Source of the DNA: a candidate division WOR-3 bacterium | GTDB taxonomy: Bacteria > Hydrothermota > Tepidihabitantia > Tepidihabitantales > Tepidihabitantaceae | Assembly (NCBI GenBank): GCA_965648905.1 | Contig: CBFGIT010000009.1 | Coordinates: 32,001 to 96,000 of the forward strand | Reading direction: 5' to 3' | DNA: 64,000 nucleotides | Shown: positions 3,323-27,636 of the stretch, piece by piece | Layout of the letters: each line of letters starts with the position of its first letter | How positions within the stretch are numbered: position 1 is the first letter of the stretch | Notes under the pieces: generated by a model | Told to the model about the DNA's origin: nothing | The model's database searches: none | Seen by the model: only the letters and a program-made list of their open reading frames with translations | Translations under genes and position numbers: made by a program

Positions 3323-6300
3323 ATGGGCAGAGCAGTTACACTGCTGATGCTCGCCGTCGCGCTGGCGACGGCAACAGGCTGGGTGAAGACGTACAATGGC
3401 GGCTATGGCGCAGACCTGGCCAACGCCATTGTGCTCACTCCAGCCGGGGTTCCCTACGTCACCGGTTCCATCACCGGCAGCGATTGGTCCGACGACCTGG
3501 TCACGGTTCGGTACAACCCGACCACGGGCGAATCGACCCTGGCCATCTGGTACTACCGGTCCGGGTTCAGCGAATTCGCCGACGAAGGCAAGGCCGTTGC
3601 AGTCGGCACCGGGGATACCGTCTTCGTCACAGGCCTCTCGACGGACAGTATCATCGAGGGCGACACGGAAGACGCAGACACATTCTACTTCGCAGGTGTC
3701 ACGACCCTGAAGTACAACAGCAACCTTAACCTGCAGGCATCTGATCGTATCGTCCCGTACAGCGACGAAGATGAAGAGCCGTCGCCCTCTGGCCGGGCGG
3801 TCGCGACTCGCGGCAACCGCGCCTACGTGGCAGCCGAGGGGTACTGGAGCTACAACCGGGCCGAGGACGTGCTTGCAGTGCGCTATGGCCCTTCCGGCCG
3901 GGATACTGCGTGGTGCAACGGCGCCGTGGGCGGCAGCGATGCCGGCAACGCCGTCGCCGTCGACGCGGACGGCAACTGCTTCATCGCCGGCAGCGTCCGC
4001 ATGGTCGCGGCCCACGGGCTGGACTTCATCGTCCTGAAGTACAAGTATGACTCGACGTTCGACCGCGAGTGGGTCGCCTACTACAATTGGGCCGACAGCG
4101 CAGACGAAGCTCGGGCGCTCGCGCTCGGAGCCGGCGGCCGAGTGTTCGCGACCGGTCCCAGCAAAGGCCTGGGCACGGGCTACGACTATGCGACCGTCTG
4201 CTTCACCAGCGACGGCGTACAGAGCTGGGCCAGGCGCTATGCGACCGACAGCGCAGACGTGCCGGTAGCGATGGCCGTTAGCCCGCAGGGCTATCTGTAC
4301 GTCACTGGCACCAGCAAGTCGGCCAGCACCGGCAACGACTTTCTGACCATCCGCTACAACCCGGCGGACGGAAGCGAAGTCTGGGTGCGGCGGTTCGACG
4401 CAAACGGCGGCAGCGACGAGGCCGCAGCAATTGCCGTAGACTTCGAGGGCAGTGTCTACGTCGCCGGCTATGCCACCCGCTCGGGTACAGGACAGGACTT
4501 TTGCATCGTGAAGTACACACAGAGTGGAGCTCTCGACACCACCTGGTATTGGAACGATGCGTCCAACGGCACAGACGTGGCTACGAGTATCGCCGTAGAC
4601 TCGGCCCGGAACGTCTACGTGACCGGGTATGGCCAGGGAACGAACGGCTTTGACATCGTGACCATGCGCATCGAACAGCCGGTGTACACAGACGTTGGCA
4701 TTGAGGGGATTATCTCTCCTGGTGATACCGAAGACTATGGGGAACTCGTGGTTCCATCCGCGACTGTGTTCGCAGACGACTCCACCAATCTGGATGACTC
4801 AGTTTGGGTCGTCATGCGAATCGGGACTTTCTACTCCAGCACTCGGAGAGCGAAGCCGGCCGCGGGCCAATCGGTGACCGTGGTCTTTGACACTTGGCCG
4901 GTCCAACAGCCGGGCTACCACTATGCGGTCTGCTCGCTGGACTTCGACGATGACAACGAAGCCAACAACCGGGCCGAGAAGCTCGTGACAGTGCCGCCAG
5001 GCTGGAAAGAAGTCGCGCACATGCCCGCAGGGCCACAATCCCCGCCGAAGCTAATCAAGGCCGGCGGTTGGCTCACCTACAATGCTGGGGATAGCCTGCT
5101 CTACGGAGCAAAGGGCAACAAGACCAACGAATTCTATGCATACGTCCCCAATCTGAACAAGTGGAGCTCTGAAGACACCCTTGCCGCGCTGGAGACGATA
5201 CCGCACGGAGCCGAGGGCAAGCTGCCCTCGAAGGGAGCGGCCGCCTGCTCCGACGGCGACGGCCACATCTATGCGACCAAGGGCAACAACACGCAGGGTT
5301 TCTGGTGCTATCACGTCGCCGAGGATTCTTGGGAGCAACTCGAGAACGTCCCTCTGGGCACGAGCGGCAAGAAGGTCAAAGGCGGCACCGACGTGGCGTT
5401 TGTGTCCAGGGGCGACACCGATTTCGTCTACCTGCTCAAGGGGTACAAGAACGAGTTCTACCGCTACAACGTGCCGAACGACACATGGCAGACCCTGACG
5501 TCGGCACCGGCGGGCAGCCCCAAGTACGACAAGGGCTCGTGGCTGGTCTTTGACGGCGACAGCCTGCTCTACTGCCACCAGGCCAAATACCACGCGTACC
5601 ATCGCTACAACCTCAATTCTCAATCCTGGGGTTCGGCTCTGACCGGGATGCCCACCATCAACCGCTTCGGCAGGAAGAAGAAGTCCAAGGACGGTGGCAG
5701 CGCCGCCTGGCTCGGCAACTCCATCTACTCGCTGAAGGGCGGCAACACCCAGGAGTTCTGGAAGTACGTTCCGGCCTCCGATTCCTGGGCGGAACTCGAC
5801 ACGCTGCCGCAGTTCGGTTACTCGCAGCAGAAGAAGAGGGTGAAGGACGGTGGCGACATCACCACCGACGGCGCGGTGCTCTACGCCCTCAAGGGTAACA
5901 AGACGCTGGAACTCTGGCGGTACGTGCCGAGCGGTTCAGGCACGCCGCCGGGGACGGAGAACTCAACTCCGCCCGGCGAGTACGAACTCCAACTGGCCGA
6001 GTGCGAAAACGCAAGCTGGCCTTGCTTCAGCCAGGATGGGCTATGGGCTGCCTGGGTCGCCCCTGGGTCGAACGGCCACGACCAGCTCTTCCGCGTGCCG
6101 AGCGACGCAAGCAGCAGCGCCGAGGAGCTTACATCGTTCTCCGACGGCGATGCCACCGGCCCCATCGGCTACTCCAGCGACGACACCAAGATCGCCATCG
6201 TGTTCGAAGCGGACAACGGCGGGTCCAAGGTGATGACCGTGCCCAGCGGGGGCGGACAGCCGACGACTCTCGTTTCGGACAAGGGTGACATCGAAGACTT

Positions 6301-7252
6301 GGCCTGGTTCCCGGGAAACGCCCTCGTCTTCAGCCTCACTGACACCAGCGACTTCACCCAGCTCTGGAGCTACAACCTGACCACGAGCAGCCTGATGAGG
6401 TTGACGAGCAGTTGTTTCGACCACCACGAACCGCATCCGGTCACCGACACGCTCCTTGTGTTTCGGCTGGATTGCGAGCCGGCGCAGGTTGCCAAGCTGT
6501 ACGCTCGGCCCGACACCAATCCGCTTGGCGGAACCGGCAACTTCGCCTATGTCTGGTGCGAGACGTGCCTGACGCAGTCGGCATACGAGCACGCCGTGCC
6601 CTGTCCTACTTCGACCGGGTCGGTGCTCTACGAAGTGGAGACCGAAGGCTACACTGCGATTGGGCAGGTCAGCATCGACGGAACCGGCGAGCAGACCATT
6701 CTGTCTGACCCGAGCTACGACCTTGTGATGCCGACCGTTGAGCCGATGGGCGATACTGCGTTCTGCATCCGGCTCTCGGGCCAGGCCAGCGCGGTCTGCG
6801 TGTTCGAGCCGGGCGGCAGCGGGTATGAACTCCTGACCGACGACAAGGCTGAGCGGGAAACGCCAAGCGCCCGGGCTGAACCGAGCTATCCCAGCAGCGC
6901 GGTCTACATGCGGGAAGACGGCATCTACCGCACGCGCGGCCAGGGCGAGGGCGGAGCACAGGGCAGCGGCCTGGGCGTCTTTGCCCTGGACCGCATCGCG
7001 CCCAATCCTAGCCGGGGTCGAGTAGGCATTTCCTGGCAGGTCCCGAGACTGGCCCAGGTATCGCTCAAGCTCTTTGACCCCACCGGCAGACTGGTCAGGA
7101 CCTTGGAGAGCGGCGAGCGGAAGCCGGGTCGGTACGTCGCGGTCTGGGACGGGACTGATGCCAAGGGCCGCAGCGTGGCAACCGGACTCTACTTTGCACG
7201 GCTCCGTGCCGCAGGTCAGCAGTTGACAAGGAAGCTGGTACTGCAGCACTAG
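3323..7252 (+). CDS. Large secreted multidomain protein: SBBP propeller, CARDB, Kelch-like propeller, TolB/PD40-like propeller, FlgD-Ig CTD
   Basis: RBS AAGGAGG; AIAVD..GxVYVTG repeats; DDNEANNRAEK CARDB end; YxLKG.K..EFY.Y repeats; PNPSRG...WDGTDAKGRSVATGLYF. Confidence 0.85.
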   Translation: MGRAVTLLMLAVALATATGWVKTYNGGYGADLANAIVLTPAGVPYVTGSITGSDWSDDLVTVRYNPTTGESTLAIWYYRSGFSEFADEGKAVAVGTGDTVFVTGLSTDSIIEGDTEDADTFYFAGVTTLKYNSNLNLQASDRIVPYSDEDEEPSPSGRAVATRGNRAYVAAEGYWSYNRAEDVLAVRYGPSGRDTAWCNGAVGGSDAGNAVAVDADGNCFIAGSVRMVAAHGLDFIVLKYKYDSTFDREWVAYYNWADSADEARALALGAGGRVFATGPSKGLGTGYDYATVCFTSDGVQSWARRYATDSADVPVAMAVSPQGYLYVTGTSKSASTGNDFLTIRYNPADGSEVWVRRFDANGGSDEAAAIAVDFEGSVYVAGYATRSGTGQDFCIVKYTQSGALDTTWYWNDASNGTDVATSIAVDSARNVYVTGYGQGTNGFDIVTMRIEQPVYTDVGIEGIISPGDTEDYGELVVPSATVFADDSTNLDDSVWVVMRIGTFYSSTRRAKPAAGQSVTVVFDTWPVQQPGYHYAVCSLDFDDDNEANNRAEKLVTVPPGWKEVAHMPAGPQSPPKLIKAGGWLTYNAGDSLLYGAKGNKTNEFYAYVPNLNKWSSEDTLAALETIPHGAEGKLPSKGAAACSDGDGHIYATKGNNTQGFWCYHVAEDSWEQLENVPLGTSGKKVKGGTDVAFVSRGDTDFVYLLKGYKNEFYRYNVPNDTWQTLTSAPAGSPKYDKGSWLVFDGDSLLYCHQAKYHAYHRYNLNSQSWGSALTGMPTINRFGRKKKSKDGGSAAWLGNSIYSLKGGNTQEFWKYVPASDSWAELDTLPQFGYSQQKKRVKDGGDITTDGAVLYALKGNKTLELWRYVPSGSGTPPGTENSTPPGEYELQLAECENASWPCFSQDGLWAAWVAPGSNGHDQLFRVPSDASSSAEELTSFSDGDATGPIGYSSDDTKIAIVFEADNGGSKVMTVPSGGGQPTTLVSDKGDIEDLAWFPGNALVFSLTDTSDFTQLWSYNLTTSSLMRLTSSCFDHHEPHPVTDTLLVFRLDCEPAQVAKLYARPDTNPLGGTGNFAYVWCETCLTQSAYEHAVPCPTSTGSVLYEVETEGYTAIGQVSIDGTGEQTILSDPSYDLVMPTVEPMGDTAFCIRLSGQASAVCVFEPGGSGYELLTDDKAERETPSARAEPSYPSSAVYMREDGIYRTRGQGEGGAQGSGLGVFALDRIAPNPSRGRVGISWQVPRLAQVSLKLFDPTGRLVRTLESGERKPGRYVAVWDGTDAKGRSVATGLYFARLRAAGQQLTRKLVLQH

Positions 7253-8962: not shown

Positions 8963-11059
8963 TCAAGCGCCTGGGCAAAGTGGCCGGCCGGCAACGTCAT
9001 CCGTGCTTGATTCGGAATTCGAGCTTCGACCTTCGTGCTTGCGGGACAGGTGCTTCGCAATCTGTCCGGTCACTTCTTCGGCCGGTAGCTCGACCGGCTC
9101 CAGTCCCTTCAAGAATTCGAGCAGGCCGCTGATGTCGAGCGTGAGCATGTGGTCCTCGACTTGTAGCTCCGGCGGCAGAGAGCGAAAGAAAGCGCCCGAG
9201 CCGAGGTTGTCTTCGAGCCGGAGCAGGCTCGAGCTGATGACGTCACGAATGGCCGAGACCTCGGGAACCAGGAACGACTTGAGCCGACGCCGGATTGACG
9301 GGTCAGAGAAGACAAAGACCTTGCCGTCCATGTCACTTGCCGCGATACCCTGTTCGGCAAATGCCTCGGACAGGATGAAGCCGCAGGTTCCGCCCAATAG
9401 ATGCACGAGATGCGTGAACTCGGCGTCGCAGAAATAGGGGAACTGATTCGGCCCTAGGTCAGGGAACAGCCGGGCCTTGAGCACCGGAGCAAGACGGTAG
9501 GAATAGCCGCCGGTGCCCGTGCCTTCAAAAACCTTGGTGTTGGACGAAACGGCGGCAAGCGGCCGTACCAGGAGCCGCTTCTCCTTCTCGCGGTACTCGA
9601 CCAGCTCCCAGGACCGGCCCGCGAGTACGAAGTGATGGAACACAAAGAAGACCGTGCCGATGTGCTGGCCGGTCTCGACCTCGGTGACTTCGAAATTGCC
9701 AAAGGTCTTGTCCTGAATATTGGAGTGTATCTTCCCGGATTCAACCGTGCGCTCCAGACGAGGCCCGGTGAAGTAGATGCCGGAGCGCTGGGATTGGACC
9801 TCACCTGAGTCAATCATCTGCCGGAAAGTACGGTCAATCGGCTCGTCACTGCCGTACAAGGACCTCAGGATGCGACGGACCGAATCGAGCGTTGTGCCGA
9901 TGCGACGGCGCTGAAACAGGTAAGAACCGACCTGCTGGGGAATCACTGCGAGCGACGGCGTGTAGCGCTTTTCGTAGAGCTTTCCGGCCCGGGCGCACTC
10001 AAAGAACGTCTCAAAGAGCATCTTCTCCCAAAGGTCCTGATACAGCCCGATGACGTGGAGATAGGACTGACGCCGCCGGTTGCCGCGGCCGATGCGCTGA
10101 AGCAGCGACGAGACGTTGAACGGCGGCCGGACCAGCACGACCGCATCAATGTCGCCGATGTCGATGCCCAGCTCAAGCGTCGAGGTGCAGCAGAGCAGAC
10201 CGGTTCTTTCCCGGTTCATCCTCGCCTCAACGTTTTCCCTGACTTCCTTGGTCAGGCTGGCGTGATGAACCCAGACCCGGCCTGCGAACGGCGGCCGGTC
10301 GAGCAGTTTGGCCGATGCCTCGGCCGCAGAACGGGCATTGAAAAAGCAGAGCACCTTGCGGCTCTCGCGGCGGGCGAGTTCCGCCACCACATCGGCGTAC
10401 CAAGTGTCATTCATGAACACGAGGGTCTCGTCAATCTCGCGCTGTGCCGAGACCTTGACCACAACCGAATCAGGGAAGTAGCGCTCGCCGATACTGAGGT
10501 CATCGATGGTGGCCGAAAGGGCATAGTAGTGCAGATTCGGGTTCATGAGCCGCAGCCGTTCGAGCAGCACGCGCAACTGGTCTCCGCGCGGCGTATTGTC
10601 CAGCAGATGCAGCTCGTCGAGGATGACGGCGGACAGCTCCTTGAAGATGCGCGTGTGGCGGCAGAGCAGCGAATCGAACGACTCCGGGGTAGTGATGAGC
10701 ACAAACGGCAGGCGCGACTCGTCGATGGCCGGATGGTCCCCGGTCTTGCGGGCGAGTCGCAGCTCAAGCTGCTCAAGCGGCTCGCCCAGGCGCCGGTACA
10801 GGTCATTCACCAGTGCCCGGGTTGGCGAGACATAGAGAATCGAGAACCTTTCCCGCTTGTCGGGCAGGAGCCGCTCAATTGCCGGGGCAACTACGGCTTC
10901 GGTCTTGCCCGAAGCCGCCGGCGAGATGACCACAAGGTTATCGCCGGCAAGGATGCGCGGAATGGTCTCGGTCTGAACTTCGGTCAGTCGGCCGAACCGG
11001 GAGAAGAACGGCGTCCATGTGCGGCGCAGCGCCGCCTTCAGCTCGCGGCTGTCAATCAC
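8963..11059 (-). CDS. Lhr-like SF2 DEAD/DEAH helicase (BrxHI/SngC-like)
   Basis: Q-motif LTEVQ; SPAASGKTE; PTRAL; TTPES; DELH; SAT; TSTLELGIDIG; QRIGRGNRR. Confidence 0.9.
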   Translation of the reverse strand: MIDSRELKAALRRTWTPFFSRFGRLTEVQTETIPRILAGDNLVVISPAASGKTEAVVAPAIERLLPDKRERFSILYVSPTRALVNDLYRRLGEPLEQLELRLARKTGDHPAIDESRLPFVLITTPESFDSLLCRHTRIFKELSAVILDELHLLDNTPRGDQLRVLLERLRLMNPNLHYYALSATIDDLSIGERYFPDSVVVKVSAQREIDETLVFMNDTWYADVVAELARRESRKVLCFFNARSAAEASAKLLDRPPFAGRVWVHHASLTKEVRENVEARMNRERTGLLCCTSTLELGIDIGDIDAVVLVRPPFNVSSLLQRIGRGNRRRQSYLHVIGLYQDLWEKMLFETFFECARAGKLYEKRYTPSLAVIPQQVGSYLFQRRRIGTTLDSVRRILRSLYGSDEPIDRTFRQMIDSGEVQSQRSGIYFTGPRLERTVESGKIHSNIQDKTFGNFEVTEVETGQHIGTVFFVFHHFVLAGRSWELVEYREKEKRLLVRPLAAVSSNTKVFEGTGTGGYSYRLAPVLKARLFPDLGPNQFPYFCDAEFTHLVHLLGGTCGFILSEAFAEQGIAASDMDGKVFVFSDPSIRRRLKSFLVPEVSAIRDVISSSLLRLEDNLGSGAFFRSLPPELQVEDHMLTLDISGLLEFLKGLEPVELPAEEVTGQIAKHLSRKHEGRSSNSESSTDDVAGRPLCPGA
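9007..9041. repeat. Heptamer tandem array (TTCGnnn)x4; right arm of the inverted repeat, inside the helicase 3' tail
   Basis: ttcggaa ttcgagc ttcgacc ttcgtgc. Confidence 0.7.
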
Positions 11060-11067
11060 GGTCCTGC

Positions 11068-12426
11068 TCAGGAGCCGACCGCGCGGGCAGGCAGCGTCCC
11101 GGCAGCGCGCAGGCGGGCCACGTCGAGCGCTTCGACCGAGAACTTGATGAACGCTCTGACCCCTTCGATGTTCCGACGCGTGGCCTCCCGCAGCACCTTC
11201 TTCTGCTCCAGCTCGGTCAGTTCAAATCCGGGATAGGCCCGAGCATAGATCATCACCATCGTCGAGAAGGCGTCAATCAACGCCTGGTCCGACAACGGGT
11301 CAAGCTCGATGCGATGGCGGACACGGTTCGCCAGCTTGATGTAAGCGTAGTCGTACGGACTCGGTGTGGTGGCAAAGACCAGCAGCAGGGCCGGGTCGCG
11401 GTAGATGTAGGGGACCGGCCGTACCTTGTTGTGGATCATCCGGTCGCTCACCCGTTTCAGGTCCCGGTCGTTCTGGGACATCCGCACCAGTCCGTCCATG
11501 AAGTTGACGCTCTTGGTCAGGTAGATGACGTCCCAGAGCCGGGTCACGGTCTCGGCCTCGTCAATCAGGAGCACAAGCCCCTTCATGCCGAGCTGACGGC
11601 ACATCCAGCTTATCCCCGAGATGATATTGCAGTAGAAGTCGGCCGCGGTCGAGAAGTCGTAGAGCGCCGGGATGCGCTGGCCGCCCTTCACCCGGTACGG
11701 CCCCTGCAGCTCGGTCGCATACTCCTTGGTACTCTCGCCCTCAATCCACTGCCAGAGCACCTCGCTCTGAACCTGGGCCGGGTCAATCCGTTTGAGCTTG
11801 GCCAGAACCGGACCGAAAAAGACGTGGTCGCTCATGTCCAGCTCGGTCGCCTTGAGCAGCAGGTCACGGAACCCGTGTTCACGGTCCTCGCTGATATAAC
11901 GGAGGTTGTGAACGAGTTCCCGATAGACCCTCTTGGGTCGGTGAGGTGTGACCTCAAGCGGGTCAAACTGAACCAGACTCGTGGCCATGCCTCGGGCCAG
12001 GGCGCGATGATGAAAGTACTCAAGCAGGTGGGTCTTGCCCGTGCCGTACTCGCCCTCGGCCATGTAGACGTCACCCCTGCCCTTGGTGAGCTCACGCAGT
12101 GCAGCCTCAATGGTCTCGACCTGCTGCTCGCGGCCGAAAGTGAACGACTCGACGTCCTGATGCGGCACGATGCCGAGCCGGAACGCCTCAATCATCCGAC
12201 GCGCCTGTATCCGGTCAATCGCGGCAAATCCGGGCTTGCCGCCCGAAGGCATCAGGTCGTCAATGCGCGCCAGCAGCCGAACCCGCTGGGTTGGAAGCCA
12301 GAGCCGCAGCCCGGTCTGAAACTGAACCAACAGCTCGGTGCCGCGCCAGCGGGTATCGAGAATCTCGCCCTCGCCGAACACCGGATGGGATACGAGACGA
12401 GGACGGTGCTGGTCAGAACTCTTCAC
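11068..12426 (-). CDS. DUF2791/BrxD-like P-loop ATPase with N-terminal Tudor-like (PcrA/UvrD-CTD-like) domain
   Basis: IEAFRLGIVP...FTFGRE; Walker A GEYGTGKTH; Walker B LVLLIDEAE; N-terminal VSHPVFGEGEIL....LLVQFQTG. Confidence 0.8.
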   Translation of the reverse strand: MKSSDQHRPRLVSHPVFGEGEILDTRWRGTELLVQFQTGLRLWLPTQRVRLLARIDDLMPSGGKPGFAAIDRIQARRMIEAFRLGIVPHQDVESFTFGREQQVETIEAALRELTKGRGDVYMAEGEYGTGKTHLLEYFHHRALARGMATSLVQFDPLEVTPHRPKRVYRELVHNLRYISEDREHGFRDLLLKATELDMSDHVFFGPVLAKLKRIDPAQVQSEVLWQWIEGESTKEYATELQGPYRVKGGQRIPALYDFSTAADFYCNIISGISWMCRQLGMKGLVLLIDEAETVTRLWDVIYLTKSVNFMDGLVRMSQNDRDLKRVSDRMIHNKVRPVPYIYRDPALLLVFATTPSPYDYAYIKLANRVRHRIELDPLSDQALIDAFSTMVMIYARAYPGFELTELEQKKVLREATRRNIEGVRAFIKFSVEALDVARLRAAGTLPARAVGS

Positions 12427-13684
12427 TCTCGACCTCGGCCTTCTGCGCCTGCTCCAGCTTCTGGGTCGTCACGCGCAGGAGCTTCTCTGCCTCCTTGCGA
12501 CCGAACTCGAGCGCAGGGTTGGCTCGGAGCTGATGCAGCGCCTCAACCGCGGCGACAACAAACAGGCGGCGATAGCCGACGTCGAACGCGAAAGCCGAAA
12601 CCGCAAGCTGGGCGAGCTCCCGGATGGCTGCCTCGCTCCGGGCCGGCACCAGGGTGACTTCATAAGCGGCCTGGAACAACTCGGTCAGTCGGCTGCCCAG
12701 TTGTCTTAGCAGCTCGACCGGCTCGATACCAAGGTCTTCAAGGTTGATTCGCACGCCGACCGGGTTGGTTTCAGACAGGGCGCTGCGCAGCCGCTGCTTC
12801 AGAGCTTCGTACACCCCGCTCGAACCCTCGAGCAGCAGATTCTCATCGGGGACGGCGTAAAAGAACATCGCACCGGGCAGGCGTGAGTTGCCGCATTCGT
12901 CCACGAGTTGACGCAGATTGTCGAGTGCCCGACGCTTGTCGCGCGACGAGGCGATCGACATGCCGCGCTCAGCCTCATCGAAGAGCAGGACCAGCCCGGA
13001 ATAGCCGATGCCGTGCACCCACTGAATCAGTGAACGAAGCATCCGGAACGCGGTCGCCTTGTCAATTCGCTCTGATATCCGATGCTGGGCGCGGATGTCC
13101 TTGGATACGTCCTCACCCTTCAACCACTGGCAGACCTCGCTGAATCCGGCTCCGTCCTCGGCCAAGAGGCACGAGAACGCGCCCCGCACCGCGTTGACAA
13201 AGCTCGTGCTCTCGGTCGTCGGCAGAGTCTCAAGGTAGCGGTGCAGGTTCTCAACCCGGTCATGCCGGCCACGCTGTTCTGCGACCCACTTCTTCACCAG
13301 TGACTCGATGCCCTTGTCCCAGACCGCGGACGGCTGGTCCGTGGCAACCGGCGCGGTGACATTGGCTGCAATGCCCTTGTACACGAGTTCGAGCTTGTCG
13401 AACGGGCATTCGGTCGGATTCAGGCTGACATAGGCCACGCAGTAGTTGTGCCGAAACGCCAGGTTGCGCACCGAGTAGAGGAAATGGGTCTTGCCGCCGC
13501 CATAGTTGCCGGTAATCAGCTTGAAGCTTGAGAGGTTCGACTTCAGGATGCCGTCAAGGTACTCCTCCTCGATGACCTTCAAGTAAGTGTCAAGCCCGAC
13601 CGTGAACGCCTCGATGCCAAACTCGGGCGGAGTCCCGGTCGAACCCAGCTTGTTCACGATCGCCTTGGCAAGCTGCTTATCCAT
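12413..13684 (-). CDS. DUF2791/BrxD-like P-loop ATPase
   Basis: GTPPEFG..FTVG; Walker A GNYGGGKTH; PFDKLELVY; GYSGLVLLFDEAE; YEALKQRL; ATG 13684 overlaps the upstream stop (ATGGATAA). Confidence 0.85.
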   Translation of the reverse strand: MDKQLAKAIVNKLGSTGTPPEFGIEAFTVGLDTYLKVIEEEYLDGILKSNLSSFKLITGNYGGGKTHFLYSVRNLAFRHNYCVAYVSLNPTECPFDKLELVYKGIAANVTAPVATDQPSAVWDKGIESLVKKWVAEQRGRHDRVENLHRYLETLPTTESTSFVNAVRGAFSCLLAEDGAGFSEVCQWLKGEDVSKDIRAQHRISERIDKATAFRMLRSLIQWVHGIGYSGLVLLFDEAERGMSIASSRDKRRALDNLRQLVDECGNSRLPGAMFFYAVPDENLLLEGSSGVYEALKQRLRSALSETNPVGVRINLEDLGIEPVELLRQLGSRLTELFQAAYEVTLVPARSEAAIRELAQLAVSAFAFDVGYRRLFVVAAVEALHQLRANPALEFGRKEAEKLLRVTTQKLEQAQKAEVESEEF

Positions 13685-14561
13685 CGGTGCGGGTCGCGGC
13701 TGACTGCTGTTGGCTGACGGCTGACGTGAACGAAACGTATGAGTAATGCGTGCCTTCCCCTTCTTCGTTGTCCGGCACCCACAGCGCCCTTGCCTTCTCA
13801 GTGGTCGCGTCGAAATTCGCGACATGCAGCTTCATCCGGTCCTCACCGGTCTGGAAGTGCCCGGCCTGTCGCAGCCGGAACAGGTCAAAGCTGAATCGCA
13901 CCCGGGGATACTCGACGAACTTGTCCTGCACCGGGTTGAGCCGAAAAGCCGGTGGCTGAATCAGCATCGTGATTTCAGCCAGCAGGTCAAGCAGAAAGAC
14001 ACGCGTACCCGGGACCAGGTTGTTGAATGCCACGACCCGCCGGTATGCCGAGTGCATCAGCTCGGCAAGCCGGGCCGGCTCGACCGACTTGTCCTTGAGC
14101 GCGTCCTGGTAAGCTCGGAGCGTACGCGCCAGTTCAGCCGGGACCAGCTTGAGTCCGGACTTCAGCTTCTCGACCTCCGGACCCCAGAACACGGTTGCGG
14201 TCCCGGCATCGAAGTCAGTGCGCAGCGTGAAACACCCGATTCTGAGCATCGGCAACTGACCCCGAACCGTAAGCCCCGAACCGTCGAGACCGGCCACGAG
14301 TTTCCGGCCGAACTCAAACCTGAACTCATCGCGGCTCTTCTCCACGGCTGCAGACTCTTCCTTCAGCCAATCCAGCACTCGGTTCCTTGCCTCGGACTCA
14401 GGGAACGCCTGCACCAGTCGACCGATCTCCTCCACGGCCTTGGCACGGACGCTGGCGTTACTGACCGGGTCGGAGAGCAGCGGACGATAGGCGCTGAGCC
14501 GCTTGACCAGCTTCTCGGCCTGGCGCGAGAGGCTCTCGAGCAATTCGACAAGCCCTTCCAT
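13677..14561 (-). CDS. Hypothetical protein (294 aa), first gene of the ATPase-ATPase-helicase operon
   Basis: Long ORF overlapping the next gene by 8 nt; helical N-terminus; C-terminal YPRVRFSFDLFRL...ATTEKARALWVP; no family recognised. Confidence 0.8.
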   Translation of the reverse strand: MEGLVELLESLSRQAEKLVKRLSAYRPLLSDPVSNASVRAKAVEEIGRLVQAFPESEARNRVLDWLKEESAAVEKSRDEFRFEFGRKLVAGLDGSGLTVRGQLPMLRIGCFTLRTDFDAGTATVFWGPEVEKLKSGLKLVPAELARTLRAYQDALKDKSVEPARLAELMHSAYRRVVAFNNLVPGTRVFLLDLLAEITMLIQPPAFRLNPVQDKFVEYPRVRFSFDLFRLRQAGHFQTGEDRMKLHVANFDATTEKARALWVPDNEEGEGTHYSYVSFTSAVSQQQSAATRTDG

Positions 14562-14569
14562 AATCAATG

Positions 14570-14597
14570 AGTATAAGCGTGAGGAGATAGAAGTCAA
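14570..14597 (-). promoter_or_regulatory. Sigma70-type promoter for the 4-gene operon
   Basis: TTGACT-16nt-TATACT, 8 nt before ATG 14561, no SD. Confidence 0.65.
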
Positions 14598-21354: not shown

Positions 21355-22668
21355 CTAATGCGCTACGACCACCTTCTGTTTAAGCACACCTTCTTTGGTC
21401 TGGGCACGCAGGACGTACGTCCCGGCTGCCAGACCGGCCAGTCTTACCTCACCGGAAACCAGGCCACTCCACACGGTCTTGCCCAGAACATCGAATACTT
21501 CCACCCGTGCCTCGTTGCTGCCCGAGAGCCGGACACGGAACGTGCCGCGGTTCAGGCTGGGCGCGACCGCGAGCTGCGCTGACCGGACCTTCTGTTCGGC
21601 GACTCCGACCGGACTGAGATAGTACTCGCTGACCCGCAGGCAATTGGTGTCAGAATTCTGGCGACCGCCAAACACCCAGATGCCAGGCACGCCTGTACCG
21701 CCAGCCTCAGCCGGAATGTAGACGCCGGCGTGGTTGCGCCGCCGCTGGTTCAGTTGTGGGAACTGGGCCCACGAGTCGCGTGCCACGTCGTAGATGTAGC
21801 AGTGGGCCGACTCACTCGACCAGGTTCCCCGGCCCGCGATGATCACCTTGCCGGCGAACTCGCCCGGGTAGTCGCTGTCAAACCCAAACCCGCGCGACTC
21901 GCCGTTCGCCCCAGGCATACTGGCAACCGTGGTCCAGCCTGCGGCAGTATCCGCCAGGTTCAGGCGGAAACACTGGGCCTTGGCGGTAAGGGCGCTCGCC
22001 GAATATGTGTCGCCACCGCAGGCAAACAGGAACGAATCAACGATAGCAAGGATGGGATAGGCACGAGCCAGCGGCATGTCCGCCAGTCTGGACCAGCGTG
22101 AGCCGGCTGGAGCCAGTGGGTCAAAGCTCCAGACTTCCCGGGTCGTGACGCTTGAGACCTGGCTGAATCCGCCCATTGCGAATATCAGGTTCCGGAAAAC
22201 GATTGAGGACTGCGCCACGGTAATCTGACCGCCAGAGCGGCCGGGAAACGGGTCGGTCGGCAGCGTTATCGCAGTATTGCTTATCGGATAGTAGACCTGA
22301 AGCGAGTCGGTGTAGTTAGGCGATATGTCGTACCGGCCGCCAACGACGTAGAGCCCGAATGTATCGCCGACCGGCAGGTTGTGGTCGTCCTCAAGCAGAC
22401 AGACATCGTAGTTAGACACGGCCCGAGCCATCGTAACGCCGACGTCGGCATACGTGCCGGTCGCGGGCGTGTAGCTGTAGATGTTGCCGAGGGTTGTTGA
22501 ATTACCGATGCGGCCGCCGAGGAAATAGACCTTGGCGGTCGGTGGAAAGTACTCCCCGTCAAAACGGGTGTAGCCGAACGGGGACTGGGGACCGGTCACC
22601 CATGCCTGTCCGGCCGCGATGCCGACCAGCAAGAAAATGCTGGCCAGCGCGAACACGGTGCTGCGCAC
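21355..22668 (-). CDS. Secreted Kelch-repeat protein with T9SS-like CTD
   Basis: RBS AAGGAGG; YFLGGR, YVVGGR, FAMGG, FACGG, WVFGGR Kelch motifs; VFDVLGK...LAAGTYVLR. Confidence 0.85.
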   Translation of the reverse strand: MRSTVFALASIFLLVGIAAGQAWVTGPQSPFGYTRFDGEYFPPTAKVYFLGGRIGNSTTLGNIYSYTPATGTYADVGVTMARAVSNYDVCLLEDDHNLPVGDTFGLYVVGGRYDISPNYTDSLQVYYPISNTAITLPTDPFPGRSGGQITVAQSSIVFRNLIFAMGGFSQVSSVTTREVWSFDPLAPAGSRWSRLADMPLARAYPILAIVDSFLFACGGDTYSASALTAKAQCFRLNLADTAAGWTTVASMPGANGESRGFGFDSDYPGEFAGKVIIAGRGTWSSESAHCYIYDVARDSWAQFPQLNQRRRNHAGVYIPAEAGGTGVPGIWVFGGRQNSDTNCLRVSEYYLSPVGVAEQKVRSAQLAVAPSLNRGTFRVRLSGSNEARVEVFDVLGKTVWSGLVSGEVRLAGLAAGTYVLRAQTKEGVLKQKVVVAH

Positions 22669-22842
22669 GTCATCCTCCTTGGTTGTTTCTGCCCGCACAG
22701 TACAGTTCGCGGGCCGGCGCGGTTGACCAAGAGTCGGGCCCGAGAAAGCCCTGTGCGCGGCATCTAGTTCTACCCGGCGCAGGCCAGTTTGTCAAGCCAA
22801 AAAAAGTACGACCCGGACGTGCGGGTCTTACGAACGGTCTAT

Positions 22843-25800
22843 CTAAGGATGAAGGGTGTCGGCGTTCTGAGTTCTGAGTTCGACGATAACCTTACTCGCC
22901 CGGCCGCCCTGCTCTGCCCTGAAGAAGTAGACGCCCGGGTTCAGCCTGTCGCCCGCGGTCATCACCCTCCGACCCATGACGTCAAAGACTGCGGTCCTGA
23001 CCGGCGGAACCGAAGTCCGCGTGAATACGGCGGACAGGCCTGATGGCTCCGCTCTGGTCAGATTCCGCTCTGGGACTGCATCAGAACCGGGATTCCCGGG
23101 CCTGATACTCTTGTTCGCAAGACCGCCCGCGTCAAAGCACCAGAACTCGCTGCTGCCCCCACCCTTCAACGCATACACCCGGTTGCCGAGACAGGCAAGC
23201 GAACCGCCGTCGTGGACTCGCTTTCGGCTGTTGCTTGCCGGAATGTCCTCAAGCTGAATCCATGTATCGCGAGCAACCTCATAGCGCCAGAACTCACTGG
23301 TTCGACCGCCCTTGAACGCGTAGATTCCACCGGTGGCGTCCGCGGCCAGCGCTGCACCCTTGCGGCAGCGCGTCAGCCGTCCGCCACTGCCTGACAGGAG
23401 TAGCGGATGGCGCGCCAGCCACGAGTCGCCGCCTGCGACGTACTCATAGAACTCATCGGTTCCGCCCTTGATGCAGAACATCCTGCTGCCCGAGGCAGCA
23501 AGACCAGTGCCGTGTCGCGCCTTGCGGTCCCAGGGCCCGGGTGGCAGGAACCGACGCGCATGCCATTGCTTGGTGACAATCTCATAGACCAGGAAGTCGA
23601 GCGTACCGCTTGCCTTGACCATGTAGACCCTGTCGCCCTTGCGGTCGGGCCAGAAGACTAGCCCGGTGCCGTGCCTGGGCTTCGGCGTATGCTCAGGAAG
23701 CGACACCATCTCCTGCCAGGAATCTCCGGCAATATCGTAGCAGTAAAACTCACGAGTCTTGCTCCCTTTCAGCGCATACACCCGGTTGACTCCATCCCAG
23801 CAGAGCGCCGACCCACCCCAGACGCGACGACGCGAGGGCCCGCGCGGCATGTCCGCGCATCGGTGCCAGGACGAATCAGCCGGGCCGTAACTGAACCACT
23901 CGGCCGAGCCGCCTCCCTTCAACGCCATCACCCGGTCCGCAACCGAAACCAGCCGTGCTCCGGCTCGCGGTTTTCGCCCCTGTTCGCCGGCCGGCACCGG
24001 AGCAAGCTCAATCCAGCGTCGGCTTGCGAGCGATTCGACCGTCACAACCAGACTAAGAGTGTCATTGGTCGGATTTTCATCATCAACCAGGAACGCCCGC
24101 GCACCCAGCAGAAACATCCCTGCCGCGGCATTCCACTGGCGCAGCGTCACGACAGTGCTGCACATCGGTTCAAGCGCCGGCGCGAGCACGGAATCAGCGT
24201 ACACAACGGTCGAGTCCGAACGTCTGACCACGACCCTGACCGGAATCTGTGCCGCCTCCTCACCCAGATTCGCGACCCGCACCTGTGGACTTACCCAGCC
24301 CGCCTGAATCACGCTGCGCGGAGACACGATTGCCCGGACTGCGGCGTCAGTCCGGGATACGACAAACGATGCACGCGCCGTGTCGTTCTCGTGGCGCATG
24401 TCACCGGCGAGCACAACCCAGCACTGCTCATCATACCTGCCGCCTACCGCCTCCCACACACGGAACGTAACTGACCTGGTCTGCCCGGGCTCAAGCTCAA
24501 CCTCCTCGGAGTCAACGTATACCCTGGCGTCGCATCCGCTCATGGAGACCTCAAACCACACCCAAGCACTGTCCTTCACATTGCCAGGATTCGCCACTTC
24601 TGCGAGCGGCTCAATCCTGCCCCGACCGATAACCTCCAGCGGTGCCAGTATCCTTGTCACCGCACCATCGCACACGCTGACAAACACCGACTCCCGCTGG
24701 CAGTCATTCCCCGGATTCCGGTCGCCCTCAACCAGAGTCGAACACGACACAGACTGGACACCACGCACAAGCAAGGTGCAGCAGGCAAACACAACCGCGA
24801 CGCTCTCCCCCGAGGCTAACATCGGGACCTCAACCGTATCATCGTAGAACGTACCGACTCTGAATCGGACTCGGAAGGTCTCAGGTCCGCTGCCCAGATT
24901 CACAGCCATCGCGCACGGCAGACCGACACTACCCGAATCCAGGACCCCGGTCGGCCAGCCGATAGACACTACCCCAACATCGGTACGGACCACGCGAAAA
25001 CTCCGGCGCCGCGCGTTGTTCTCAAGATGCATGTCGCCTTCGAGCACAAGCGAGCAGCAGGAGCTAAACCGACCAACTGTCGTGGGCCACGGCCGGAAAC
25101 CAAGCACCGTATCCTGTCCGGGCCCTAGCTCCGTGCGCAGCGAATCAAAGTAGACCCGTGACTCACCTGCAATCCAGAACTGCGCCTCCACACGGGCCGG
25201 AACATTGCCACGATTCCGCACCTGAGCACTGGGCCGGACTGAATCTGTCCGCACAACCGAGTCCGGTTCCAGAATCGAATCAACGCACACGTCGGCAAGA
25301 CGCACGAACGCACTGCCGACCCAGACGTCGTTGCGAACGTTCATATCCTCGGCGGTGTAGACAGAGCATCTGACTGCGTTCCAGCCCGGCGGTCCGGCAG
25401 ACCACGGTGCGAACTGGAGCAGAGTGTCATGGCCCGGCTCAAGTCCTAGGACCCGCAGTGAGTCGCAATAGTCCGCAACACGCAGCCAGACATCAACGTT
25501 TGCAGTCCGACTGCCGTGGTTCTGGATAGCAGCCTCGGGGATGACAACGAATCCGGAATCCAAAGTGTCTCGCGGAGCCACAATTGACTCAGCCGCCACG
25601 TCTATCCAGTACAACTCGAACGACGACGATGCAGTATCGTCCTCAGGATGCATGTCACCCGGGCAGGCGACCGAACATCGCGCCTTGTAGCAGCCGGGAG
25701 CACCAAGCCAGGCCCTGAATGTCACGGTCACGCTCGATTCCGGGAGCAGCGACACAAAGATGCTGTCCCGGTACACGGTCGCTGAGTCAGACTCGATGGT

Positions 25801-27372
25801 CAGGGTCGCCTTTGTCGTGCATCGAGCATTCCCCCTATTGCTTAGCACAACCCTCGGCCTTACCGTATCCCAGAGCATCAAGCCGGACGGTTCGAGAATA
25901 GTGTCAACAGCAGCGTCCCGTATGCAGACCAAGAAAGAATCCCTCAGCACATCGTTTTCCGGCCACTCGTCCTGAGCCACGCTGGTCGAACACGAGACAG
26001 CGTGCCAGCCCGGCTCGCAGGCAATCCAGGGGTCAAAGCGAACCTCGGTCTGCTGACTCGGCTCGAGCTCAGCCAGTATTCGCGTCTGCACGGCACTGTC
26101 AATCCTCAACTGCACAACCACATCGTGCTCAGTCCACATACCGCAGTTCGCCACTCGGACGACTGGTTCAATTACCGAGCCCGAATCAATCGAACCCGCC
26201 GGTTGCACGATTCTGATCACGCCGACATCGTGCAGTCGTTCGTAGCGACGGAGACGGACCGCAGGATGTTGGCCGTAGGGGTCTTCAGTCCATGCCACCT
26301 GCACCCTGCCCGAACCAGAAGACACTGAGACGCGCCCCTTGTCCCGAGTGCCCACCGAGACCATCGTCTCCGGCTTCCAGATGTTGCCCCGAACTCGACA
26401 GCGGTAGAACAACTGGCGTTGCTGCGACACCGGTTCGTCCCCAGCCCACGCCACGTGAACGTCACCGGCTTCGTCCACAGCGACAGCCGGAGATACCCGC
26501 GGGCGGTAACGCGGTGCGACGCGGGTGGTCTCACCCCAGCCTGCCTCAGTCAACTCGCGGTGAAGAACCCACTGCCCGGATGACGACAACCCACCTACCC
26601 AGACAACGTTAAAAGAACCATTCGGCCCCGATGCCACGCATGGGCTGCTGCACTCGGTGCGGTTGTACACGGTGTCAACGCGTTGCCAGATGCCGAGTCT
26701 TCGCGTCCGCGCCAGTATGCACGACGACGGGATTGACTGCTGCCACACGACCATCACGTCCCCGTCCGGACTTGCGGCAACAGCCGGCCGAGTCAGGTTG
26801 CCATCAGCTTGAGCGAACGACGTATCGTTCAGCCACCTCGCGCCGTCATGCTGGATGTAGCGTACCTGATGGAATGATTGCGGTTGGTACTGCCACACAA
26901 GGTGCACCAAGCCAGCCCGGTCAACCGACATCGAAAGAAGACTCTCCGCGGATACACCGCGGAGACTGTCAACTTCAAACCACAGACCCGAACTCGGACT
27001 CCGGCGGCACAGCTTCAACATGCGGGGTGTCTTGAGAAACCGCGCAACAAGCAGTTCGCCGCCTGAATCCAGAGCAAGCACGGGGTCCATCGTGCCGCGC
27101 GGGTCGGGAAAGAGCACCGTGTCCTCGGACCACTGCCTGGTCACTGCGTCGAAGCGTGAATACCACAACTGGGCAACGCCATCGACGCTGCCCCGCCAGA
27201 CGACGTGAATGTTACCGGCAGCGTCCGCCACTACCGCACGGGCGTTGTTCTCGCAGGTGAGGTCGTGGTCATTCGGTCGGTTGGTAACAGTATCAATCGG
27301 CAGCCAGCCAGCCGCAACCGGCCGGGCCCATGCCAGCAACAGCACCACCAAGAGAAGGAGGAAAGGTCGCAC
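22843..27372 (-). CDS. Large secreted protein: N-terminal propeller, about 7 CARDB repeats, Kelch-like propeller, T9SS-like CTD
   Basis: GGAGGAG RBS then GTG 27372; HVVW/HLVW/HVAW blades; repeated D..V..I..P...N.G...D....ND CARDB units; VFDVMGRRV...PGVYF. Confidence 0.85.
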   Translation of the reverse strand: MRPFLLLLVVLLLAWARPVAAGWLPIDTVTNRPNDHDLTCENNARAVVADAAGNIHVVWRGSVDGVAQLWYSRFDAVTRQWSEDTVLFPDPRGTMDPVLALDSGGELLVARFLKTPRMLKLCRRSPSSGLWFEVDSLRGVSAESLLSMSVDRAGLVHLVWQYQPQSFHQVRYIQHDGARWLNDTSFAQADGNLTRPAVAASPDGDVMVVWQQSIPSSCILARTRRLGIWQRVDTVYNRTECSSPCVASGPNGSFNVVWVGGLSSSGQWVLHRELTEAGWGETTRVAPRYRPRVSPAVAVDEAGDVHVAWAGDEPVSQQRQLFYRCRVRGNIWKPETMVSVGTRDKGRVSVSSGSGRVQVAWTEDPYGQHPAVRLRRYERLHDVGVIRIVQPAGSIDSGSVIEPVVRVANCGMWTEHDVVVQLRIDSAVQTRILAELEPSQQTEVRFDPWIACEPGWHAVSCSTSVAQDEWPENDVLRDSFLVCIRDAAVDTILEPSGLMLWDTVRPRVVLSNRGNARCTTKATLTIESDSATVYRDSIFVSLLPESSVTVTFRAWLGAPGCYKARCSVACPGDMHPEDDTASSSFELYWIDVAAESIVAPRDTLDSGFVVIPEAAIQNHGSRTANVDVWLRVADYCDSLRVLGLEPGHDTLLQFAPWSAGPPGWNAVRCSVYTAEDMNVRNDVWVGSAFVRLADVCVDSILEPDSVVRTDSVRPSAQVRNRGNVPARVEAQFWIAGESRVYFDSLRTELGPGQDTVLGFRPWPTTVGRFSSCCSLVLEGDMHLENNARRRSFRVVRTDVGVVSIGWPTGVLDSGSVGLPCAMAVNLGSGPETFRVRFRVGTFYDDTVEVPMLASGESVAVVFACCTLLVRGVQSVSCSTLVEGDRNPGNDCQRESVFVSVCDGAVTRILAPLEVIGRGRIEPLAEVANPGNVKDSAWVWFEVSMSGCDARVYVDSEEVELEPGQTRSVTFRVWEAVGGRYDEQCWVVLAGDMRHENDTARASFVVSRTDAAVRAIVSPRSVIQAGWVSPQVRVANLGEEAAQIPVRVVVRRSDSTVVYADSVLAPALEPMCSTVVTLRQWNAAAGMFLLGARAFLVDDENPTNDTLSLVVTVESLASRRWIELAPVPAGEQGRKPRAGARLVSVADRVMALKGGGSAEWFSYGPADSSWHRCADMPRGPSRRRVWGGSALCWDGVNRVYALKGSKTREFYCYDIAGDSWQEMVSLPEHTPKPRHGTGLVFWPDRKGDRVYMVKASGTLDFLVYEIVTKQWHARRFLPPGPWDRKARHGTGLAASGSRMFCIKGGTDEFYEYVAGGDSWLARHPLLLSGSGGRLTRCRKGAALAADATGGIYAFKGGRTSEFWRYEVARDTWIQLEDIPASNSRKRVHDGGSLACLGNRVYALKGGGSSEFWCFDAGGLANKSIRPGNPGSDAVPERNLTRAEPSGLSAVFTRTSVPPVRTAVFDVMGRRVMTAGDRLNPGVYFFRAEQGGRASKVIVELRTQNADTLHP

Positions 27373-27636
27373 GGCATGTGACTCCTCCGTCCTCAGGTCT
27401 GCGGCCACATGGTCCGGCCGAGGCGGCTCCATCCGTCGCAGTCCTGTTGACTGGTTTGTGACGGCGCTGACTCCGGACACAGCAGCATGATGACGCAATA
27501 CGCCGCTGGTGTCAAGGGAAGAATCGGACGGCATCGCTGCCAGCCAACGCAACCGACGCTGACCGCAAGAAGAGAGCCGACCCGGACTCGGCCGGGTCGG
27601 CCCTTGACATGCTCTCACAAGAGAGCTGGAGCGCGG

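Follow-up and report, generated by a model that had tools for sequence, protein, structure and literature searches.

Within a 64,000-nucleotide stretch of the genome of a candidate division WOR-3 bacterium (contig CBFGIT010000009.1, positions 32,001 to 96,000; hereafter the window), a minus-strand, co-oriented run of four genes, here called A, B, C and D, spans positions 14561..8963, according to the open reading frames (ORFs) read in the window. The cassette is widespread; in WOR-3 it is a vertically inherited, single-copy, core-like gene set, and it is related to, yet distinct from, Shango and the helper pair of BREX type 2. As read from its translations, it encodes two paralogous ATPases with intact catalytic motifs, one of them carrying a predicted Tudor domain of the UvrD type, and a novel first protein. 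We propose that the cassette is a constitutive genome-surveillance or maintenance machine, fixed as a core function in WOR-3, in which the ATPase pair would load or activate the helicase, a reading on which our confidence is evenly balanced. An original prediction on this stretch had suggested a distinct Shango/BREX-related anti-phage or DNA-stress module; the distinctness of the cassette holds, but in WOR-3 it is core-like and does not behave like part of a defence island. The features discussed below are the following.

13677..14561, minus strand: gene A, 294 amino acids (aa) from its ATG; ORF without a family
12413..13684, minus strand: gene B, 423 aa; BrxD-like ORC/Cdc6-type AAA+ ATPase, full-length
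11068..12426, minus strand: gene C, 452 aa; divergent BrxD-like AAA+ ATPase, Walker A and B intact, preceded by a predicted N-terminal Tudor domain
12238..12405, minus strand: predicted Tudor domain of C, motif V-x-H-P-x-F-G-E-G ... F ... G-L-x-L-W, of the UvrD/PcrA C-terminal type
8963..11059, minus strand: gene D, 698 aa; SF2 DExH helicase of the BrxHI/SngC/Lhr-core kind (DEAD + Helicase_C)
14570..14597, minus strand: promoter-like site TTGACT-16-TATACT, matching the sigma-70 consensus at 10 of 12 positions

Distribution and inheritance in WOR-3

Each distribution search covered the same sample of 201 genomes of the WOR-3 phylum; genomes, loci and families are labelled G, L and f, and G000 is the genome of the window. 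The parts of the cassette have near-identical profiles, the counts being 71 genomes for A, 72 for B and 68 for the family-specific C-terminal half of D. The cassette is carried by 17-18 of the 18 genomes of family f1, 3-4 of the four of f2, 3/3 of f3, 8/8 of f4, 11/11 of f6, 6/6 of f7, 7-8 of the eight of f23 and 4-5 of the five of f29, and by none of those of f8 (0/7), f13 (0/6), f16 (0/8), f17 (0/14) and f19 (0/20). There is one strong copy per genome, with the exception of G183. The additional copy in that genome, the only clear extra among the 72 cassette genomes, has a B that is 46% identical, a Tudor domain, and a D whose C-terminal half is 33% identical.

The more distant the kin, the lower the identity to the window: for A it is 83% inside the genus, ~50-60% inside the family and 28-41% further out, and the corresponding values for B are 90%, 69-80% and 40-68%. 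For A, B and C, quick maximum-likelihood trees (21, 17 and 17 rows, respectively, with rows bearing P identifiers left out of the A tree) recover the same clades, namely f1, f6, f7, f6+f7 and f29. These trees require 2-3 changes of order or class label, the minimum being 2, compared with 7.6-10 in shuffles, and 0 of 200 shuffles were as good. Locus L027, from the only cassette-bearing genome of family f27 (G048), has very long branches in all three trees; its D is short (527 aa), and its C, of 385 aa, aligns from residue 70 and has no detectable Tudor domain. From these sequence features, L027 looks like a separately acquired, divergent version.

At 20 WOR-3 loci fetched from approximately 12 families, A-B-C are adjacent in 16 and D comes next in 10, one further locus being cut by a contig end. 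In four genomes (G061, G008, G060 and G070), A stands alone between housekeeping genes, with B-C and D on other contigs, and in five others (G051, G155, G066, G160 and G058) D is located away from A-B-C. In each of these genomes the missing partners turned up elsewhere, either on another contig or some way off, so linkage is not needed for the four genes to be kept together. Among 19 WOR-3 neighbours scanned, 17 belong to ordinary cellular families and two are ORFs without a match; the families include BamA, TsaD, D-Tyr-tRNA deacylase (Dtd), YicC, CoaBC, SAICAR synthase, reverse gyrase, Asp- and Lys-tRNA synthetases, glycosyltransferases, a lytic transglycosylase and a subtilase, and no known defence family was found among the 19. 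At five of the 20 loci, a glycosyltransferase downstream is syntenic. At L017 (genome G051, family f2), a reverse gyrase gene (L017:1067-4414) lies two genes downstream of A-B-C, which suggests a thermophilic lineage within the cassette-bearing WOR-3 families.

Being single-copy, all-or-none by family, congruent with taxonomy, housekeeping-flanked and kept together even when unlinked, the gene set is better read as serving a core function than as a mobile defence system. A defence-island setting, which the original prediction had named as a thing to check, is not that of WOR-3; outside the phylum, some copies adjoin HmaA and HmaC.

Two paralogous ATPases

Both B and C match the Pfam family PF10923 (BrxC_BrxD, DUF2791), with E-values of 3.3e-48 and 5.7e-27, respectively; against a gathering threshold of 22.2 bits, B scores 165.1 over profile positions 3-407 of 414 and C scores 95.1 in two stretches. 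The PADLOC models give BrxD (1.9e-42 for B and 1.2e-27 for C) and SngB (4.4e-20 and 1.4e-11). The catalytic motifs are GNYGGGKT (Walker A) and FDEAE (Walker B) in B, and GEYGTGKT and IDEAE in C, and all are invariant in alignments of 17 sequences. An ATPase duplicated into two divergent partners, as originally described, is thereby borne out, as are the Walker A motifs, the shared DEAE and the SF2 motifs of D, all of which can be read in the translations. A search of G000 with PF10923 matched only B and C.

B is the slowest-evolving of the four genes, with a mean column identity of 64%, and is 24-27% identical to annotated plasmid-borne BrxD. Its C-terminus is an acidic-aromatic tail, ...E-x-EEF (window 12413-12424, minus strand), in 15 of the 17 WOR-3 orthologs, the other two ending in EEL and EEY. 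The tail might serve this lineage as a docking peptide; that it is a docking motif in general was rejected, because it is specific to WOR-3 and present in 1/59 complete B ORFs elsewhere.

The Tudor domain of C and the UvrD pattern

The earlier reading of C as an ATPase alone missed a second domain. About 70 residues precede the ATPase and carry the motif V-S-H-P-V-F-G-E-G ... F ... G-L-x-L-W-L-P, which is kept in 16 of 17 aligned orthologs. A profile of this N-terminal stretch, A4, was compared with the PDB sequences, and its top four matches are all UvrD C-terminal domains: 7egt_B (E=0.0022), 4c2t_A (0.083, covering residues 700-729), 7egs_B (0.14) and 6yi2_A (0.16), with other Tudor domains next at E ~0.7. 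The Tudor homology rests on sequence profiles. C shares with UvrD/PcrA the motif V-x-H-x-x-[FWY]-G-x-G ... F ... G, including an invariant His and aromatic residue; the domain is placed at the N-terminus of an AAA+ ATPase in C, whereas in UvrD/PcrA it is found at the C-terminus of an SF1 helicase. According to PMC8318588, the PcrA Tudor domain binds a 'helicase interaction motif' of RNA polymerase (RNAP) beta and of UvrB, and PMC5397179 describes H681, W684, K712 and L714 as needed for the binding of PcrA to RNAP. The C columns matching H681 and W684 (His and an aromatic residue) are invariant.

A Pfam scan of the N-terminus of C returned nothing, and the family for the PcrA/UvrD Tudor domain, PF21196, gave no match to it even at E<=10. 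Because PF21196 does not recognise C, a further difference from UvrD/PcrA, the Tudor domain of C would be a divergent branch of the UvrD-type domain. PF21196 matches occur in 47 of the 201 genomes, of which 46 are without the cassette (f16 8/8, f17 14/14 and others), and the sole match in cassette genomes is a 461-aa, C-sized ORF in G181. With A4, all C orthologs were strongly found except one (G090, f23), and weak matches appeared in ORFs of 680-745 aa from the cassette-free families f14 (4/4), f19 (19/20) and f30 (3/3). All five A4-matching ORFs fetched from cassette-free genomes end in a V-x-H-P-x-F-G-x-G tail, and the four of them that were scanned are all UvrD/PcrA helicases (PF00580 + PF13361). 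The main UvrD-like helicase of G000 (679 aa) has no Tudor tail, and C is the sole A4 match anywhere in that genome, even with E<=10 allowed; the main UvrD_C-bearing frames of four other cassette genomes are just 618-647 aa long. Cassette-bearing WOR-3 genomes mostly have a UvrD without a Tudor tail, and many cassette-free ones keep the tail. The cassette as a simple swap for Mfd or UvrD was considered and rejected, G000 having Mfd above the cut-off, a RecG-like gene, UvrB and UvrD-like helicases.

The helicase and the relation to Shango and BREX

D carries the motifs SGKT, DELH, SAT and QRIGRGNRR, and its PADLOC matches are BrxHI (3.2e-68) and SngC (2.1e-65). The DExH SF2 core is shared with Lhr and Lhr-core, and the best NCBIfam matches are to the ligase-associated DEXH helicase and Lhr-type models, but D falls far under the curated cut-offs (202.8 vs 850 for TIGR04121, the ligase-associated DEXH helicase; 161.6 vs 849 for PRK13767; 98.3 vs 1496 for PRK09751). 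It also differs in that no DEAD_assoc domain was detected in it and that no Pfam family covers its C-terminal half (~336-698). No nuclease or toxin domain was detected in A-D with Pfam or PADLOC.

The PADLOC scores of B, C and D agree with the proposed kinship to SngB/SngC of Shango and BrxD/BrxHI of BREX. This pair of a BrxD/SngB ATPase and a BrxHI/SngC helicase serves two validated anti-phage systems, and the locus offers a version of it stripped of TerB and of the BREX core genes, in a phylum where it behaves like a core gene set. As in Shango, a DUF2791/BrxD-kind ATPase is followed by an Lhr-like helicase after a non-enzymatic first gene, and an SngB-type ATPase stands beside an SngC-type helicase, though the BrxD/BrxHI models score higher. 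In contrast, SngA has a TerB domain, and A has neither TerB nor TerB-N; Shango has three genes with one ATPase, and the cassette has two paralogous ATPases, one bearing the Tudor domain. Shango is described as defined in defence hotspots, with a measured phage phenotype (10.1101/2022.11.11.516204), whereas the cassette is core-like and vertically inherited in WOR-3. On a Paenibacillus plasmid the classical layout is seen, with one ATPase and a helicase next to a TerB-N protein. That no TerB protein lies near the cassette proved correct, with none in A and no match to PF05099 (TerB) in the genome of the window.

For BREX type 2 (Pgl), BrxD and BrxHI are the best family matches of B, C and D, and in both cases the ATPase and helicase are tightly linked. 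The differences are that PglZ, PglX, BrxC and PglW are not at the cassette locus, that BrxD is described as one ATPase standing alone and lacking additional domains while the cassette has two, one with a Tudor domain, and that B and C (143.9 and 93.9 bits) are far under the 350-bit cut-off of the NCBIfam BrxD equivalog NF033438. No BREX core gene was found among the 19 WOR-3 neighbours or 87 neighbours scanned at other loci, PglX and PglW not having been searched as families. The absence of BREX core genes nearby, as first noted, is in keeping with B and C being the only PF10923 matches and with the position of the only PglZ-domain ORF of G000, which is away from the cassette on another contig (C35:9852-10418, minus strand; 554-aa frame, 62.8 bits). 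This ORF lies ~8 kilobases from UvrB-like matches on C35, and it may belong with the PorX-like regulators and not with BREX. In the literature on DUF2791, BrxD, SngB, Shango and BrxHI, with the supplements of PMC12839542 not covered, no description of the four-gene cassette was found.

The first protein of the cassette

A has no match in Pfam, PADLOC or NCBIfam, and the original statement that a 294-aa protein of no known family leads the operon is upheld; no homology to TerB or TerB-N is detectable. A was rejected as a homolog of TerB, TerB-N or SngA: a scan of 33 A-family members at E<=1 matched 41 families, with no TerB family in the 25 that were listed, hhalign between the A profile and the TerB-N protein of a Shango-like plasmid module gave a probability of 0.05%, and the genome search was negative. 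The AlphaFold2 model of the whole protein has a predicted local distance difference test (pLDDT) of 92.0 and a predicted template modelling score (pTM) of 0.82, and that of residues 94-294 has values of 92.7 and 0.87. In the model, an N-terminal three-helix bundle (1-92) comes first, then a beta unit of five strands (99-138) and a pair of long helices; the C-terminal alpha/beta part (~159-284) may resemble a winged helix. Structure matches found with VIA for this C-terminal part are nearly all winged-helix domains (Polycomblike, ORC1/Cdc6, TubR, KAT6A and Cdt1), with Z of 4.3-5.9; the best (Z 5.9, root-mean-square deviation (rmsd) 3.2 Å, 79 residues aligned) is under the noise level of the tool. 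Foldseek against the PDB gave nothing at E<=0.001 for the whole model or for its C-terminal part. With the whole model, VIA matched the N-terminal helix bundle alone, at Z ~8, which is the noise level for helices, and the A sequence profile against the PDB gave coiled-coil noise only.

A search of the protein atlas with A returned only unnamed clusters of ~280 aa, with unreliable taxon labels. A profile search found 1037 representatives (50% clusters) at E<=1e-3 and 341 at E<=1e-30, and the names on low-ranking clusters include Candidatus Cloacimonadota, Promethearchaeota and Helarchaeota. Archaeal-type forms are ~360 aa long and carry a Rho_N/SAP-type insert (PF07498, 25.4-25.8 bits vs a cut-off of 24.9). 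Five longer relatives (P0209, P0394, P0213, P0262 and P0237) have 354-469 aa, some of them being named Asgard archaea; in longer relatives the insert, helix-extended-helix in form (PF07498, <=25.8 bits), lies inside the N-terminal helical part. The family of A is modelled with confidence, shows no detected kinship to any known family and has about a thousand representative sequences, some of them named Asgard archaea.

Co-folding of B with A gave ipSAE interface scores of 0.39, 0.51 and 0.51, the best of three controls being 0.00, with contacts agreeing at least 90% between runs and a partner pLDDT of at least 85; the verdict was 'weak support', on a mark reached by 116 of 157 solved complexes and two of 215 mismatches, and with a score of at most 0.60 by just 18 of the 157 solved complexes and by both passing mismatches. 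Of the assembly first suggested, with A as sensor or adaptor, A-B binding receives weak support from one co-fold.

The cassette beyond WOR-3

A metagenome scan with the archaeal-type A forms yielded 80 loci with a G+C content of 27-69%, whose genes were placed by hidden Markov models (HMMs) built for A, B, C and D. The order A-B-C-D is complete in 44 of these loci, 33 are cut by contig ends in register (eight with A, 13 with A-B and 12 with A-B-C) and three are irregular, L140 having a fused C-D frame and L077 and L127 a fragment of B. The same order in 44 of 80 unrelated loci, with 33 more cut in register, puts the four-gene arrangement far beyond chance, and together with the 10 of 20 WOR-3 loci in which all four genes are adjacent it answers in the affirmative whether the gene order is conserved. 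All 44 complete loci have the two paralogous ATPases, B and C, and 54 of the 56 C ORFs have the Tudor domain (E<0.01). D is shorter in these loci, with a median of 530 aa. The irregular frame of L140 (L140:9965-11965) has 666 aa, in which the Tudor domain and front of C run into D (HMM scores of 202 for C and 472 for D); this is either a natural C-D fusion or deletion, or else an assembly artefact.

The neighbourhood outside WOR-3 was sampled at 15 long metagenome loci with 87 neighbour ORFs. Housekeeping neighbours at these loci include the thermosome, GrpE, GidA, phosphotransacetylase, an oligopeptide ABC transporter and GAR synthetase. No relatives of A or B were found in IMG/VR contigs with the patterns used, and no A was found in PLSDB plasmids.

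Proposed role and alternative explanations

We infer a mechanism in which B and C would probably form a hetero-oligomer of the ORC/Cdc6 kind, and A, which may be winged-helix-like and has some relatives with a SAP/Rho_N insert, would probably be a nucleic-acid-binding adaptor docking on B. By analogy with UvrD-type domains, the Tudor domain of C would tether the assembly to a partner protein, for which RNA polymerase or UvrB is a precedent. A-B-C would then load or switch on D, a putative 3'-5' helicase of the Lhr/Ski2 type, where DNA or RNA:DNA is abnormally structured. Constitutive surveillance or maintenance of this kind might, for instance, act where transcription has stalled or DNA is damaged. 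The loading or activation of D is modelled on PMC12839542, in which BrxD is described as an ORC/Cdc6-type AAA+ ATPase and BrxHI as Ski2-like, and in which BrxD is proposed to load or activate BrxHI. The cassette may also take over the Tudor-mediated link that the UvrD of these genomes lacks. The Tudor-bearing duplicated ATPase points to a concrete candidate partner, such as RNA polymerase, UvrB or some other protein. Should the cassette serve genome maintenance in WOR-3, one machine would be common to a repair pathway and a module of the defence type, and the mechanism of Shango and of BREX type 2 could be approached from there.

Several observations weigh against this proposal. Wherever relatives of B, C and D have been characterised, they are parts of anti-phage systems (Shango and BREX type 2). 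Three WOR-3 families are patchy, the only mixed ones (f12 1/3, f24 1/4 and f27 1/6), and G183 has a second, divergent B-C-D copy on a short contig (C72:275-3961) in addition to a regular cassette on contig C3. The occurrence of the cassette in very different organisms (G+C content of 27-69%, Cloacimonadota and Asgard archaea) implies horizontal transfer outside WOR-3. Part of the 15 long loci have defence or mobile neighbours, namely HmaA (7e-222), HmaC/DUF499 (1e-116), SIR2_2, the PDC-S01, PDC-S27 and PDC-S09 candidates, PIN, HepT and a phage portal gene, toxin-antitoxin-type genes being among them. Regarding the UvrD pattern, the f29 genomes G166 and G160 have both the cassette and the UvrD tail, f8, f9 and f13 have neither, and the genomes that show the anticorrelation are kin, so that few independent events are involved and no statistical claim is made. 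The C column matching PcrA K712 is not conserved (R/K/E/C/F/V/S), and since the Tudor domain is kept in archaeal-type copies, the partner need not be RNAP. Finally, the winged-helix likeness of A is below significance (Z 5.9).

As some non-WOR-3 copies stand beside known defence genes, a defence role for the cassette family is possible. In such a role, the cassette would be a fixed anti-phage or anti-plasmid system, a third relative of Shango and of the BrxD-BrxHI pair of BREX type 2, in which A replaces the TerB sensor and the ATPases and helicase detect or unwind invading DNA; we give this a real but less than even chance. It would account for the homology to SngB/SngC and BrxD/BrxHI, the tight conservation of the operon across distant taxa including archaea, the HmaA, HmaC, PDC-S01/S27/S09, SIR2_2, PIN, HepT and phage portal neighbours, the divergent second copy in G183 and the patchiness of f12, f24 and f27. 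It fits poorly with the WOR-3 cassette, which is all-or-none by family, single-copy, taxonomy-congruent, housekeeping-flanked and co-retained when unlinked, and with the slow evolution of B. Moreover, A-D have no detected effector domain, the IMG/VR and PLSDB searches returned no A/B and no A relatives, respectively, and the UvrD Tudor pattern would not be expected from a role in defence alone.

A bolder form of the genome-maintenance proposal, which we consider unlikely, is that the cassette is an ancient SF2-helicase loader on the ORC/Cdc6 plan (two AAA+ ATPases and a Cdt1-like winged-helix adaptor), common to Asgard archaea and bacteria, which in WOR-3 would serve core transcription-coupled genome maintenance with a captured UvrD Tudor docking role. 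If true, this would make it a new repair route of the housekeeping kind, either derived from the helper modules of Shango and BREX or ancestral to them. Quite improbable, in our view, is a dedicated, transcription-independent loader like ORC/Cdc6-Cdt1-MCM, in which the AAA+ pair and a Cdt1-like A load D onto particular DNA structures for replication restart or fork rescue. The analogy, a functional one only, is that AAA+ ATPases of the ORC/Cdc6 clade, a winged-helix-like accessory and a helicase are encoded together; it draws on the classing of BrxD and the loader proposal in PMC12839542, on the VIA list for the C-terminal part of A, mostly winged-helix and including ORC1/Cdc6 and Cdt1, and on the core-like WOR-3 distribution. 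However, D is a monomeric-type SF2 enzyme and MCM a hexameric AAA+ ring, A shows no significant likeness (structural matches at noise level, with a best Z of 5.9, rmsd of 3-4.5 Å over ~80 residues and nothing from Foldseek at E<=0.001), and the Tudor domain is left unexplained. In addition, we know of no SF2 Lhr-type helicase that needs a loader. An RNA-directed machine, such as one supporting RNA surveillance or degradation with a Ski2-like helicase acting on RNA, is very improbable: BrxHI is classed as Ski2-like in PMC12839542, some A relatives have the Rho_N/SAP-type insert and Tudor domains occur in RNAP- and RNA-linked factors according to PMC5397179, but the closest helicase families (Lhr-core, BrxHI and SngC) act on or are assigned to DNA, and no RNA-binding or RNase neighbours were found among the 19 WOR-3 and 87 metagenome-locus ORFs.

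Locus layout and neighbouring genes

A and B overlap by 8 nucleotides (nt; 13677-13684) and B and C by 14 nt (12413-12426), and a gap of 8 nt (11060-11067) separates C and D; the coordinates agree with the four co-oriented genes, two overlaps and gap first described. The ATG start of A is supported by homologs of ~280 aa that align from residue 1. The -10-like hexamer of the promoter-like site stops 8 nt ahead of this ATG, and five sigma-70-like sites were found in the scanned region, compared with 1.1 +/- 1.3 in shuffles, for a consensus that may not be that of WOR-3. The operon's own promoter, as proposed originally, would correspond to this site, which is a consensus match. Given a -10 hexamer 8 nt from the ATG and no visible Shine-Dalgarno-like stretch, the transcript of the operon may be leaderless or nearly so.

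The neighbours of the cassette in the window are an FMN-binding protein, a GT2 glycosyltransferase, PlsY and large secreted proteins. Elsewhere in G000, on contig C10 (L059:14-3474), a 449-aa ATPase ORF overlaps by 4 nt a following 704-aa UvrD-like helicase ORF (PF00580, 72.6 bits), a candidate Gabija-type pair (OLD-family ATPase and UvrD-like helicase). Three window ORFs are very large, with 1309 aa (3323-7252, plus strand), 447 aa (21355-22698, minus strand) and 1591 aa (22843-27618, minus strand); they have repeated beta-propeller-like segments and similar C-terminal ends, and we take these ends to resemble the secretion-sorting tails of surface proteins.

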